Assembly (NCBI GenBank): GCA_039889305.1 | Contig: JAVVFV010000003.1 | Coordinates: forward strand, 511-64,510 | Origin: Candidatus Zestomicrobium tamdykulense | GTDB lineage: Archaea; Thermoproteota; Thermoprotei_A; Sulfolobales; NBVN01 | Reading direction: 5' to 3' | Length of the DNA stretch: 64,000 nt | In this document: positions 51,322-56,090 of the stretch, one piece after another | How positions within the stretch are numbered: the stretch's first letter is position 1 | Layout of the letters: every line of letters starts with the position of its first letter | Translations under genes and position numbers: made by a program | The notes under the pieces: generated by a model | Told to the model about the DNA's origin: nothing | What the model saw: the letters and a program-made list of their open reading frames with translations, nothing else | The model's database searches: none

Positions 51322-51951
51322 TTATTTAGTGCTAGGTCCTTGTTTACTTACCCATCTTTTCATGTAAGCATTTAGAGATTCACTTATTCTCTGCGGATCT
51401 AAATAAAGCTCATTAGCGTTTAGTTTTCTAAGTATCTCGAAAGCTTTTTCAGGTATTTTGTCTTCATTTTCTTGTCTAGATAACTCAAACAAAGTTTCAC
51501 TAAAAGACCACGGGTAATATATCCAGACCCACTTCTCAACACGTTCGACATAATAGTCAGGTAAGAAAGAACTAGAAGTTTTGTAGTGTAGTACTGCGGT
51601 CTTAATCTTAAGAGCACCTAAATCACTAACTAACCTAGCTATTCTTGACATAGTAGTTCCTGTATCTACAACCTCATCAACTATCAAAACTTCCTTGTTC
51701 TTGAGATCTATCCCACTATAATAACTGATCTCAGGCTCCTTAAGTATCCTACCACCAACACCCCAAAATCTAGACCTAACTACGTGGAAGTCATCTACCC
51801 CAATCACGTCACTAACTATACGCGCGGGGACTAACCCACCCCTAGATATAGTTACTACGGTAGTGAAATTCTCTCCTGAGTCAAGAATAATCTCAGCTAA
51901 CCTGTAACACATGCTTAAAGCCCTACTCCAAGGAATATAGAGAACCTCCAC
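51322..51951 (-). CDS. Purine (hypoxanthine/xanthine/guanine) phosphoribosyltransferase
   Basis: [31 protein letters not shown] and W..YPW. Confidence 0.85.
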
Positions 51952-51961
51952 TAGAACCCCC

Positions 51962-53542
51962 TCAGCAAGGCTCTATAGTGCTTGGAGGCTTAGAAGTTAT
52001 AACGTAAGTCACGGCAGTTACTTTACTCAAGCTAGAAGTTATTCTTCTGGACAACACATCAAGGACTTCGTGAGGTATTCGAGCCCAATCAGCAGTCATC
52101 CCATCAGAACTCTCCACTATTCTTATAGTAAGGATATATCCTTGATCTCTTTCATCTCCTTTCACCCCAACCCACATATCATCACCAACGACAGCGAAAG
52201 CCTGCCATACTGAATCATAAAGATTGTACTCTCTTAACGTATCCTCAACTATCTTGGAGGCTTTCCTAACTATCTCTAGTTTCTCTTTAGTAAATACTCC
52301 AATGACTCTTACTGCTAGACCAGGTCCTGGGAAAGGATGTCTTTTCAGCAGAGCCTCAGGAACGCCTAAGAGCTTTCCTACCTCCCTAACTTCATCCTTG
52401 TAGAGATACTTTAGCGGCTCAAGTATCTTAATCTTAAACCATTGTGGTATCCCACCGACGTTATGGTGGGTTTTGATTTTTCTTGAACCACTCACAACAC
52501 CGCTCTCTATGATGTCCGGATATGTCGTACCCTGAATAAAGTACTTGATTTCCGGATCGTTCTCAATCAATTCCTTAAAAATCTTAACGAATTCCTCACC
52601 TATTAGCTTCCTACGTTCCTCACAGTCAGAAATTCCTTTAAGAAGCTTCATGAATCTGTCTTCCGCGTTTATGTAAAGTGGTTCTATACCTAAGCTTCTT
52701 AAGTTACTTAAGACTTCCTCAACCTCGCCTTCCCTCAAGAACCCGTGATTAACGAAAACAGCAACTAATTTGTCTTTAAATACTTTCCTAGATATTAAGG
52801 CAGCTACCGTAGAATCTATACCACCACTAACCGCAATTAATGCTTTAGCGTCTGTATTTACTTCATTCATCATTTCTTCAATTATGCGTTCAACGTAGTT
52901 ACTGAGTGACCAATTCCTAGCAACACCAGCTATATTAAGGAAGTTCTCGAAGAGCTGCAAGCCCTTCACAGTATGCTTAACTTCAGGATGAAACTGAACC
53001 CCGTAAATCACGTTACCCTTAAAAATTGACTTGAAAGCAGCAATACACTCATTCTCTGTTAGCGCGAGTACCTCACCTAAATCAGGTAGTGAAGTAACAC
53101 AATCATTATGACTCATCCACACATACTCAAAGTCATCCCAACCATTAAATAGGGGATCACGCTTAATCACTTTAATCCCGGTACGCCCGAACTCTCTCCT
53201 CCTCTCTATAGTGCCCCCAAGCAACCTAGCTAATAATTGATGACCAAAGCATATACCAAGGACTGGCTTACTACTACTGAGAATTAATTCACTAAATTTG
53301 CTGAGTTCCACCTCATTAAGCTCGCCAACACTCAAAGGACTACCTGATAAGACTAAAGCTTTAAACTTTGCAAGCAGGTGTCTTTCTACGGAATTATAAG
53401 GAACAACACTAGTATAGACCCCTAATTCCCGAAATCTTCTGGATATTAAGTGAGTGTATTGACCTCCTAAGTCTACAACAAGAATTCCGTCAAGAAATTC
53501 CTCTCTCACACCAATTCCCTCAAATAATTTAATTATGTACAA
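51962..53542 (-). CDS. guaA: GMP synthase (glutamine-hydrolysing), fused GATase and synthetase domains; true start probably about 30 nt downstream of 53542
   Basis: [51 protein letters not shown] and KPPSTIE. Confidence 0.96.
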
Positions 53543-53652
53543 TAATAAATATTCTATTTCAGCACGCGTAACGATTTCTGTAAATTAACATGATTAAATT
53601 AATTAGAATATACGAGATACTACCACCTCTTAACAAAACCTAGTAAATATTT

Positions 53653-55077
53653 CTAGAAGCTCTGGAGAATAGCTCTACCAGCAATAACTCCTGTAGCCGC
53701 AGCTATGTTTAAGCCTCTTGAGAGTCCCGCGCCATCACCAGCTACGAAAATGCCTTCAGCGCTGGTCTGTAAGTTCTTGTTGGTCTTGACTCTTAAACTG
53801 TAGTACTTAATCTCTGGCGCGTAAAGTATTGTTTGTGGTGAGTAAAGTCCTGGATAGATGATGTTTAGTCTTTCGATAGCTTCAAGTAAGTTAATTACGA
53901 CTCTATAGGGGAGAACAACTCCTATGTCTCCAGGCACTACGTTCTTTAGAGTAGGTGTTACAATACTCTTTTCTATTCTTTCCCAAGTACTCCTCCTGCC
54001 TTTTTCTAAGTCACCTAACCTCTGAATTATTGGCTTGCCTACACCTACTCGGGTAGCTATCTTAGCTATAGACTTACCTAGTTCTGTGGCATCAGAATAA
54101 GGATCAGTGAGTTTTAACGTGACTAGCAAGGCGAAGTTAGTATTTCTGGATTTTAGGTTCCTATAACTAACTCCGTTAACTCCAATAGTACCGTCTTCAT
54201 ATTTTTCCTGCACTACAAACCCTTGTGGGTTAGTGCAGAAAGTTCTGACTTTATCGTCATAGAATTTCGTGTAGAGTATTATTTTGGGATCTGGATTTAT
54301 GGTTGTGACGTCTTCTGTCACGTATGACGGAACCTCTACTCTAACACCAACGTCTAGAGGTCCTGGTTCATACTCTATGTTCAAGCTCTTAAGTATTCCC
54401 TGAAACCACGTGGTTCCTCCCCTACCTGGTGCTAGGAGAATCCTGCTTGTCGTGAACTCTCCTCGACTAGTACTTAACTTAAAGCCGTTACCACACCTCA
54501 TTATATCAATAACACTAGTTTCTGTAAGTATTCGTACACCCTTCTTTTCTAGGTATGTACTCAAGTTATCAATAACCTTAATCATTATGTCGGTCCCCAC
54601 GATTCTCTGAGGTGTTGGTATGTACTTAGCACCAGCCTTAGCAGCGAGTCTCTCAAGAAAAGTTATTTTTTCTTTGTCCGGCACGTAGAGGGTGTCTTCC
54701 GGCATACCGAAAGACATGAATACTTTGTCAACATACTTCACTAGTTCTTCAGCATAGTTCCAGTCATTAACTAGCTTGTCTAAATCTCCCCCCACATCAG
54801 GTCTTAAGTTAAGTGTTCCGCTACTTAACGCGCCAGCACCCCCTATCCCGTAGGTCACGTTACATACTTTGCAGTTAAGGCATTCTGCTCTATTGTTTGA
54901 TACGTGTGAGTTCCAGTTATTTGTTTTAATAGCTAGCGGGCATGTCCTATCAGTTACTTTCTTCCCTTTATCGAAAATCACTATTCTCAAATTACTTTCT
55001 GCATTATTCACTATTTCTAGGGCGGCCATGAGTCCTGCAGGTCCTCCACCAACTATCGCTACGTCGAAGTTTCTCAT
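53653..55077 (-). CDS. Uncharacterised FAD-dependent oxidoreductase (COG2509)
   Basis: IVGGGPAG, a Cys cluster CP...CxxCxxC, GGAG..S.G.L, GVRVE, VRTFC.NP.G.V, NFALL, YAPEIKYY and GDGAG.SRG. Confidence 0.85.
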   Translation of the reverse strand: MRNFDVAIVGGGPAGLMAALEIVNNAESNLRIVIFDKGKKVTDRTCPLAIKTNNWNSHVSNNRAECLNCKVCNVTYGIGGAGALSSGTLNLRPDVGGDLDKLVNDWNYAEELVKYVDKVFMSFGMPEDTLYVPDKEKITFLERLAAKAGAKYIPTPQRIVGTDIMIKVIDNLSTYLEKKGVRILTETSVIDIMRCGNGFKLSTSRGEFTTSRILLAPGRGGTTWFQGILKSLNIEYEPGPLDVGVRVEVPSYVTEDVTTINPDPKIILYTKFYDDKVRTFCTNPQGFVVQEKYEDGTIGVNGVSYRNLKSRNTNFALLVTLKLTDPYSDATELGKSIAKIATRVGVGKPIIQRLGDLEKGRRSTWERIEKSIVTPTLKNVVPGDIGVVLPYRVVINLLEAIERLNIIYPGLYSPQTILYAPEIKYYSLRVKTNKNLQTSAEGIFVAGDGAGLSRGLNIAAATGVIAGRAILQSF

Positions 55078-56090
55078 CGCATAACACCTAAATCTTTTCT
55101 CCTATCTATCATGTGAGTAACGTCATCTCCAGTACCTATGAGTGTTACCGGTGTCCTCAACAAGTCCTCTAAATCTTCCACCCACTTCCTGGCTTCAGGA
55201 GGTAACTTACCCCATTCCTTAACTCTAGCTGATGTCGGAAAGGTTTTGTCGAGGCACGTGAGCGCTACTTGAGTAGCTGAATTAAGCATTACTGCTCTCT
55301 TAGCTAGGTAGTAATCAAAAGGAGCAGCCCTCCTTATCCTACCCGTAACGGAAGCTTTCTCTATCCAACCCCTATTAATGACTTCATCAATAGATAGCTC
55401 ACCAGGTAGAGGACCGCCCCCAACTCTAGTAACGTAAGACTTGAAAACTATGATTACTTCATCAACGTACTTAGGTCCTAAACCAACTTCTGATAAAATG
55501 CCTGAGGCGGTAGTGTCTCTGCTGGTTACGTAGGGGTATGTACCGTGATATAGTGATAAGTAAGTGCCTTGAGTTCCCTCAATCAAGATATTATCCCCTG
55601 AATCAATAATTCTCCATATCTCATCAACTAAGTCTACCAGGTACGTCCTTAACTCAGGAAAATCTTGAGCAAGTTTTAGTTTACGCATTACTCTGTCAAC
55701 CATAGCAGCTCCAACACCCTGAAGAGTAGAGCCTATAGAATTCCTAAGATACTCATCTCTTGCTTCAGTCTCTACATGTTTATCTTCTATGATTCCAGCA
55801 TTCTTATCAACGAAAACCCTCCCAGCAACACCTAATGTAGTAACTTCCCTGAAGAACACGTCAAGCCTGACTAAAGACCCTGCAGCAATATAAAGCTTAC
55901 AACTACCGTTAACAAACGCGGAAGGAATTATCCTTAACTTGAACTCCTTACCACCCCAAAATACTGTGTGACCCGCATTAACAGAACCAACTCTCACAGC
56001 CGCACTTATTTCGTCGTTAAGAGCTAAGTAAGCAACTACCTTGCCCTTACCTTCATCACCAAAGAACCCTCCGACAACAACACTTAACAT
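55074..56090 (-). CDS. purA: Adenylosuccinate synthetase (short archaeal form)
   Basis: GGFFGDEGKGK, NAGHT, IGSTLQG.G, EGTQG..LSLYHGTYPYVTS and VTGR.RR. Confidence 0.96.
   Translation of the reverse strand: MLSVVVGGFFGDEGKGKVVAYLALNDEISAAVRVGSVNAGHTVFWGGKEFKLRIIPSAFVNGSCKLYIAAGSLVRLDVFFREVTTLGVAGRVFVDKNAGIIEDKHVETEARDEYLRNSIGSTLQGVGAAMVDRVMRKLKLAQDFPELRTYLVDLVDEIWRIIDSGDNILIEGTQGTYLSLYHGTYPYVTSRDTTASGILSEVGLGPKYVDEVIIVFKSYVTRVGGGPLPGELSIDEVINRGWIEKASVTGRIRRAAPFDYYLAKRAVMLNSATQVALTCLDKTFPTSARVKEWGKLPPEARKWVEDLEDLLRTPVTLIGTGDDVTHMIDRRKDLGVMR

Follow-up and report, generated by a model that had tools for sequence, protein, structure and literature searches.

The window analyzed here, a stretch of 64,000 nucleotides (positions 511 to 64,510 of contig JAVVFV010000003.1 of Candidatus Zestomicrobium tamdykulense), carries a gene for a flavin adenine dinucleotide (FAD)-dependent protein that, as read from the sequence, is translationally coupled to purA and belongs to a family found within purine gene clusters across Thermoprotei. 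A functional link of this flavoprotein to the purine-nucleotide metabolism of Thermoprotei seems likely to us. Because its fold is that of a redox enzyme and the conversion of inosine monophosphate (IMP) to xanthosine monophosphate (XMP) is the only redox step linking its neighbors, we tentatively propose that it might be an FAD/iron-sulfur (Fe-S) IMP–XMP oxidoreductase, a specific reaction that we regard as possible rather than probable. A housekeeping role without any purine chemistry appears nearly as likely. The parent family COG2509 had been known, as an uncharacterized family, so that the new elements are the archaeal subfamily with its putative Fe-S site and the coupling to purA.

IMP dehydrogenase (IMPDH; GuaB) is usually treated as near-universal. 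It catalyzes the committed and rate-limiting step toward guanine nucleotides and is a drug target. If the proposed reaction were correct, a whole archaeal class would make XMP by an unrelated flavin/iron-sulfur enzyme that fills a gap in the pathway. This would amount to a new enzyme class and to the non-orthologous replacement of an enzyme that ranks among the most conserved in nucleotide metabolism, and it would assign a function to a pan-archaeal family that has stayed uncharacterized since a structure from it was solved in 2010. Whatever the reaction, the linkage of this orphan flavoprotein to purA, purB, and purP is very strong, and two well-studied Thermoprotei capable of autotrophy have GuaA without an annotated GuaB.

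Translational coupling of purA and the flavoprotein gene

A first-pass annotation of the window had described four co-oriented genes for PurA, an FAD protein, GuaA, and a purine phosphoribosyltransferase (PRT), and this layout is borne out by the open reading frames (ORFs) and by Pfam and NCBIfam scans, with the same coordinates and all genes on the minus strand. The leading gene, purA (55074-56090), encodes a short adenylosuccinate synthetase of the archaeal type (338 aa; PF00709) that scores 506 bits against the NF003295 equivalog model (cutoff 368). TATA-like elements read directly from the sequence lie 5' of it (56113-56127). The stop codon of purA overlaps the start codon of the flavoprotein gene (53653-55077; 474 aa) by four nucleotides, the ATGA at 55074-55077 with the junction ...GTT ATG CGA TGA / ATG AGA..., just as the annotation had read it. 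Translational coupling at this locus involves these two genes only. Between the flavoprotein gene and guaA lies a spacer of 110 nt (53543-53652) with 75% A+T that probably holds a separate promoter, so that guaA and the PRT gene probably form their own transcription unit.

The guaA gene (51962-53542) encodes a fused, glutamine-hydrolyzing GMP (guanosine monophosphate) synthase (NF000848, 597 bits), with the GTG at 53509 as a possible true start. Ten nucleotides past its stop, after a GGGGG run, starts the gene of a type-I PRT (51322-51951; PF00156) that is most like xanthine/6-oxopurine PRTs, with the xanthine PRT model NF006613 as its best NCBIfam match at 56.9 bits, i.e., under the cutoff of 138. 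The absence of guaB from this cluster, as claimed by the first-pass annotation, holds for the entire 64-kb window, in which we found no IMPDH catalytic-loop motif in any frame, no tblastn match to E. coli or Pyrococcus IMPDH queries, and no PF00478 among the ORFs scanned, with the rest of the genome outside this search.

An archaeal subfamily of COG2509 with five invariant cysteines

The flavoprotein is a member of arCOG02231, the archaeal subfamily of COG2509, and a soluble two-domain FAD protein. Its N-terminus forms an FAD-binding Rossmann fold with the motif G10-G-G-P-A-G15, its C-terminus carries the motif G447-D-G-A-G (both invariant or nearly so), and residues 274-423 match PF21688 (FAD-depend_C) with 47.6 bits at a cutoff of 27. 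The orthologs of Ignicoccus hospitalis and Thermoproteus tenax have likewise been assigned to arCOG02231/COG2509 as "uncharacterized FAD-dependent dehydrogenase" (PMC3149612 and PMC3189178). The match to PF07992 is limited to residues 4-58, all equivalog models stay far under their cutoffs, and the protein is not one of the two-dinucleotide-binding pyridine nucleotide-disulfide oxidoreductases, in which a redox-active disulfide is combined with a second Rossmann domain for NAD(P)H. In the searchable literature we found no functional study of COG2509, arCOG02231, or VP0956, the Vibrio relative described below.

The family is pan-archaeal, very conserved, and uncharacterized. Homologs with 55-94% identity occur throughout Thermoprotei, the closest named relative being a Zestosphaera sp. 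protein at 77% in the homolog search and, at 85%, the one encoded at a locus recovered by contig scan (L005). This contig scan with the flavoprotein covered a single genome for each species and yielded 80 loci with at least 47% identity. Carriers included Desulfurococcales, Sulfolobaceae, Pyrobaculum, Vulcanisaeta, and Conexivisphaera as well as Thermococci, Thermoplasmata, Methanomassiliicoccales, Methanoperedens, Hadesarchaea, Odin-, Baldr-, and Marsarchaeota, and Methanofastidiosum. A second search added Pyrococcus horikoshii, P. yayanosii, Palaeococcus, Methanocaldococcus, Methanococcus maripaludis, Hydrothermarchaeota, Methanomethylicota, and a metagenome-assembled genome (MAG) of Woesearchaeota.

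Across 83 full-length archaeal homologs, 64 positions are invariant, many of them Arg, Lys, Asp, or Glu. Among them are Cys46, Cys66, Cys69, and Cys72 (83/83 sequences), which correspond to the N-terminal CP..CxxCxxC cluster recognized in the first-pass annotation and form an insert of Cys46-Pro47 and Cys66-x2-Cys69-x2-Cys72 (54862-54942, minus strand, codons verified). Judging from this pattern, the insert is a putative [4Fe-4S] site, with zinc binding as the alternative. A fifth cysteine, Cys281 in the motif RTFCTNP (54235-54237, minus strand), is invariant in all 85 sequences aligned and a candidate catalytic residue.

An AlphaFold model of the flavoprotein has a mean predicted local distance difference test (pLDDT) score of 74, and its best match in the PDB is 3NLC (VP0956 of Vibrio parahaemolyticus; Foldseek template-modeling (TM) score 0.71, E 5.7e-23, 23% identity), followed by others at TM 0.51 or lower. 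The two proteins (phmmer E 3e-16) share an FAD Rossmann fold in the N-terminal part, PF21688 as the C-terminal domain, and a GDGAG-type C-terminal motif, and 3NLC also keeps an "FC" cysteine equivalent to Cys281. However, 3NLC is about 60-70 residues longer at its N-terminus and lacks the four-cysteine insert, with the segment TLNPE-SNV aligned in its place. As an uncharacterized structural-genomics target, it supplies no function.

Other flavoprotein families resemble the window protein in part. HI0933-like/aminoacetone oxidases and GidA/TrmFO-type proteins (the GR2 type) share the N-terminal dinucleotide motif and the C-terminal segment that contacts FAD, and the Pfam matches cover just these FAD-binding ends (PF03486 at residues 5-42, PF01134 at residues 394-471). 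The substrate domain differs, the structures 2I0Z, 4CNJ, and 2GQF match at TM 0.35-0.37, and TIGR00275 scores 42.6 bits against a cutoff of 183.8. A full-length match to GidA/MnmG/TrmFO was not found, as the PF01134 match spans profile positions 316-384 of 391 with 28.5 bits. Some Fe-S flavoproteins, e.g., those of the GltD/DPD and HdrA types, pass electrons on from FAD by way of a [4Fe-4S] cluster, and the window protein is like them in combining FAD with a ferredoxin-like pattern of Cys-x2-Cys-x2-Cys and a distal Cys-Pro. However, its cysteine motif is an insertion within the FAD domain rather than a ferredoxin domain of its own, and no homology to them appeared in Pfam and NCBIfam scans.

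Linkage to purine genes across rearranged loci

For a survey of gene neighborhoods, the ORFs flanking the flavoprotein gene at 84 loci were clustered and annotated. The constant partner of the flavoprotein gene is purA and not guaA. At half of the loci (42/84), purA lies directly 5' and co-oriented, with gaps of -1 to 92 nt that are mostly below 40 nt. Five further loci (Pyrobaculum/Thermoproteaceae) have it adjacent and divergent, two have it farther upstream, and one has it downstream. The remaining 34 loci lack purA, and 33 of these come from outside Thermoprotei. Other purine genes follow at lower frequency with purB in 27, purP in 16, PRT genes in 13, guaA in 10, and purC in five of the 84 loci. 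The linkage to a purine cluster that the first-pass annotation had seen at a single locus is therefore persistent as far as purA, purB, and purP are concerned but does not extend to guaA.

The arrangements of these genes vary and include guaA-PRT-purB-purA-FAD, purB<->purP-purP-purA-FAD in Sulfolobaceae, purA-FAD-purB-PRT, purA-FAD-purC, and FAD-purB-purA (L048), where FAD stands for the flavoprotein gene. Independently of all arrangements with purA, six Methanoperedens-type loci have a purP-FAD pair with gaps of 3-18 nt. That the purine linkage survives rearrangement points to function rather than inherited gene order. In the five-gene clusters, the step from IMP to XMP is the sole interconversion without a gene. 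In tblastn searches with the IMPDH of E. coli and of Pyrococcus, no IMPDH turned up at any of the 50 loci with purA, each taken with flanks of up to 10 kb per side, and an IMPDH motif scan plus tblastn over all fetched loci was positive only for a Pyrococcus locus (L087) and the E. coli control.

In Sulfolobaceae (L031, L035, L039, and L043), the two divergent purP paralogs treated by Brown et al. 2011 (PMC3261824) form an apparent operon with purA and the flavoprotein gene (positions -4 to 0), and purB is arranged divergently to this operon. The second of the encoded proteins, a PurP-like ATP-grasp protein with no assigned activity, may also be considered for an unassigned purine step.

IMP dehydrogenase in carriers of the flavoprotein

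The first-pass annotation implied that carriers of the flavoprotein would lack guaB, which agrees with two Thermoprotei and not with three Thermococcales. The complete gene table of I. hospitalis (Iho_0001 to Iho_1435; Giannone et al. 2011, PMC3149612), an organism described as an obligate autotroph, lists a GMP synthase and two PurP, while no IMP dehydrogenase, GMP reductase, or guaB appears under product or arCOG names. Similarly, the T. tenax table (PMC3189178), which runs to TTX_1950 and covers about 92% of the genome, contains GuaA and the PurA/arCOG02231 pair TTX_0534/0535 and no COG0516 or GuaB. At least two carriers with GuaA thus have no annotated GuaB. We found no reports of an IMPDH gap in Thermoprotei in the searchable literature.

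In Thermococcales, a contig with the exact P. horikoshii flavoprotein also encodes a canonical IMPDH of 486 aa with PF00478 and CBS domains, 1.8 kb away; the sequence, at locus L087, is named IMP dehydrogenase of P. horikoshii. Both genes are found together on single chromosome-scale contigs of P. horikoshii (1,738,505 bp), P. yayanosii (1,716,818 bp), and Palaeococcus pacificus (1,859,370 bp). The flavoproteins of these organisms share 47-50% identity with the window protein and keep all key residues invariant. An IMPDH near the flavoprotein gene was not seen in six Thermococci loci, so that we take its proximity in Pyrococcus as a sign of co-occurrence and not of linkage. Given this coexistence, the anti-correlation between purA-linked COG2509 proteins and guaB that the first-pass annotation had envisaged does not exist in strict form.

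Searches for IMPDH homologs gave limited taxonomic information. With the Pyrococcus IMPDH as query, only Thermococcales were among the matches listed (best 120), and a search against 50%-cluster representatives returned Methanobacterium and bacteria without taxonomic resolution. Nitrososphaera viennensis has an annotated GuaB, and the flavoprotein carriers recovered from its part of the tree are MAGs of Nitrososphaeria/Nitrososphaerales.

A possible IMP–XMP oxidoreductase and its alternatives

In its full form, our proposal is that arCOG02231 might comprise FAD/[4Fe-4S], cysteine-dependent IMP:XMP oxidoreductases that would be the missing IMPDH of Thermoprotei, which appear to be without GuaB, and a reversible, ferredoxin-linked archaeal interconverter in place of the missing GMP reductase, a scenario that as a whole we likewise regard as possible rather than probable. 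The proposed chemistry would parallel that of IMPDH. Cys281 would attack C2 of IMP, the hydride would pass to N5 of FAD in place of NAD+, and hydrolysis of the thioimidate would release XMP. Electrons would then exit via a [4Fe-4S] cluster on the four cysteines to ferredoxin or another acceptor, and with a low-potential donor the reverse reaction from XMP to IMP could take place. In Thermoprotei without guaB, the substrate of GuaA would then be reached from IMP through the flavoprotein alone. Euryarchaeota generally lack GMP reductase, and reversibility would explain why the flavoprotein is retained in lineages that have an NAD-dependent GuaB but no GMP reductase.

Any likeness to GuaB (PF00478, COG0516) is hypothetical and functional only, in that the flavoprotein gene sits where guaB would complete the set for IMP, AMP (adenosine monophosphate), and GMP and that an invariant cysteine could, by analogy, act like the catalytic cysteine of IMPDH. 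There is no relationship in sequence or fold. GuaB, which uses NAD+ as its acceptor, has the TIM-barrel fold, a GSICTT loop, and a CBS insert, whereas the flavoprotein is of Rossmann type with a cysteine cluster, and both coexist in Thermococcales. The flavoprotein itself has neither a PF00478 match nor a loop motif of the G-x-G-S-I-C-T-T type, and tblastn with the IMPDH of E. coli or Pyrococcus shows no similarity.

Several observations weigh against an IMP–XMP oxidoreductase. We know of no flavin-dependent IMP dehydrogenase, and both Fe-S binding and the substrate are predictions from sequence. The structural model is of low confidence around the cysteine insert and Cys281, with pLDDT below 50 at residues 47-97. 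The family is pan-archaeal at at least 47% identity with its 64 invariant positions, including Methanococcales and the Woesearchaeota (DPANN) MAG, and three of its carriers (P. horikoshii, P. yayanosii, and Palaeococcus pacificus) have a canonical IMPDH on the chromosome that also encodes the flavoprotein. As a neighbor, guaA is found at just the 10 loci mentioned above, and the evidence for an IMPDH gap in Thermoprotei comes from the annotation tables of two genomes. Outside Thermoprotei, neighbors are heterogeneous and include cysS (e.g., in M. maripaludis), PTH2, IPK/IDI2-like genes, DUF3786 (in Methanomassiliicoccales), and, in single loci, MoaA or CofC. We therefore treat the new enzyme class suggested by the first-pass annotation as an open hypothesis and not as a conclusion, and its interpretation overall as partly supported.

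The strongest competitor is a housekeeping flavoenzyme, e.g., one that modifies RNA or tRNA, acts in redox maintenance, or catalyzes a step related to cofactors or isoprenoids. Its adjacency to purA in Thermoprotei would then reflect co-regulation or inherited gene order. The pan-archaeal distribution down to a DPANN MAG and the very high conservation, which suggests one universal function, would fit such a role, as would the translation-related neighbors cysS in M. maripaludis and Hydrothermarchaeota, PTH2 in Methanocaldococcus fervens, TyrRS and a B3/4-domain protein in Ignicoccus, and TtuA, AlaRS, and a tRNA endonuclease in Pyrococcus. The weak GidA-type match at the C-terminal FAD segment and a 4-nt overlap with IPK/IDI2-like genes in Hydrothermarchaeota point the same way. 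Yet no single non-purine partner is common to the different lineages, while the purine linkage is kept in at least six arrangements and, independently, with purP in Methanoperedens. Moreover, the I. hospitalis ortholog Iho_0345 is as abundant as a metabolic enzyme (142/133 spectral counts versus 136/118 for PurA) and well above the RNA/tRNA-modification enzymes in the same table (0 to 32; PMC3149612). It also speaks against housekeeping that the list of Sulfolobus islandicus genes essential in rich medium includes PurB and one PurP but neither arCOG02231 nor PurA; by synteny with L043, the flavoprotein gene of this organism is probably among those between M164_1901 and M164_1905. Taken together, we give a housekeeping function a chance of a similar, low order to that of the IMP–XMP reaction.

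Within purine metabolism, the commonest neighbors PurA, PurB, and PurC are enzymes that consume aspartate or give off fumarate, and the flavoprotein could instead act on this side of their reactions by reducing the fumarate from PurB or by oxidizing an N-succinyl intermediate or aspartate. Fold searches do return fumarate reductase flavoproteins and amino-acid oxidases (E ~1e-11). However, these matches (TM 0.33-0.45) reflect the shared FAD domain, the substrate domain is PF21688 and not a capping domain of the FAD_binding_2 type, I. hospitalis already has Sdh/Frd subunits, and the purP-only linkage in Methanoperedens does not fit, all of which makes this role improbable. We find it very hard to believe that the protein is the IMP cyclohydrolase, which forms IMP from formylated 5-aminoimidazole-4-carboxamide ribonucleotide (AICAR; formylated form FAICAR) and has been reported as missing from Crenarchaeota and Pyrococci. 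According to Brown et al. 2011 (PMC3261824), neither purO nor purH2 is present in any of the Crenarchaea studied or in the Pyrococci, and the lineages concerned carry the flavoprotein gene, which lies directly 3' of purP in Methanoperedens and of purP-purP-purA in Sulfolobaceae. Nevertheless, cyclohydrolysis requires neither FAD nor an Fe-S cluster, Pfam and NCBIfam scans of the flavoprotein show neither PurO nor PurH2, the MGS-like N-domain of PurH, and the family is also present in Methanococcales, where every PurP falls into the same cluster and M. jannaschii uses PurO (PMC3261824). The company of the flavoprotein gene in the window consists of genes for salvage and interconversion, and the 64 kb contain no genes of de novo purine synthesis. 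Just as slim is the chance that the guaB gap is filled by another protein with the flavoprotein as a bystander, e.g., speculatively, by a second PurP-like ATP-grasp paralog that would carboxylate AICAR with bicarbonate to XMP. Crenarchaeota have two purP paralogs of which the cluster II type has no assigned activity (PMC3261824), and both stand beside purA and the flavoprotein gene in Sulfolobaceae. This idea would draw on chemical analogy, though, it would leave the conserved flavoprotein linkage unexplained, and Thermococci have both purP clusters (PMC3261824) plus GuaB.

Other features of the window and of related loci

No tRNA genes (ARAGORN) and no Rfam families at gathering threshold were found in the 64 kb, and four ORFs of 244-458 aa (4610-5554, 29760-30956, 38125-39501, and 39987-40721) have no Pfam match at E <= 1e-5. 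On the same strand as the purine cluster and 106 nt 3' of the PRT gene lies a gene for a TYW1/Taw1 radical-SAM wyosine synthase (50205-51215, minus; TIGR03972, 402 bits), an arrangement kept only in Zestosphaera-type loci (L001, L002, and L005). The window contains two separate pairs of TldD/PmbA metallopeptidase genes (31622-34341 and 47425-50198), the second of which adjoins the far side of TYW1 and has the same position in Zestosphaera (L001/L002). Within about 20 kb of the purine cluster there are also genes for SurE (35316-36104, plus) and an HD-domain YfbR-like 5'-(deoxy)nucleotidase (46402-46959, minus), which together with the PRT suggest nucleotide salvage. On the other side, a DUF2070 membrane protein gene (56261-57997, plus) and purA are transcribed divergently, with an AT-rich region of 170 nt and TATA-like elements between them, as is also seen in Zestosphaera L001/L002.

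Some neighbors at other loci deserve mention. In Hydrothermarchaeota (L091, 2743-5976), the flavoprotein gene overlaps by 4 nt a gene of the AA_kinase family, which in turn is followed by one of the FMN_dh family. The AA_kinase and FMN_dh genes look like the IPK-IDI2 pair of the archaeal mevalonate pathway, a context far from purine metabolism. Next to the IMPDH gene of Pyrococcus (L087, 3814-6203) there is a LAGLIDADG homing-endonuclease-like ORF. An apparent association with CBS domains in Conexivisphaera/Nitrososphaerales was rejected, as the neighbors are ClC chloride channels with CBS tails. Stand-alone CBS-pair genes do occur, directly 5' of the flavoprotein gene and co-oriented in M. 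fervens (L088, 7470-7967) and at position -1 but divergent in Thermococci (L059, L068, L069, L071, and L074). They recall the regulatory Bateman module of IMPDH, which may be a coincidence.

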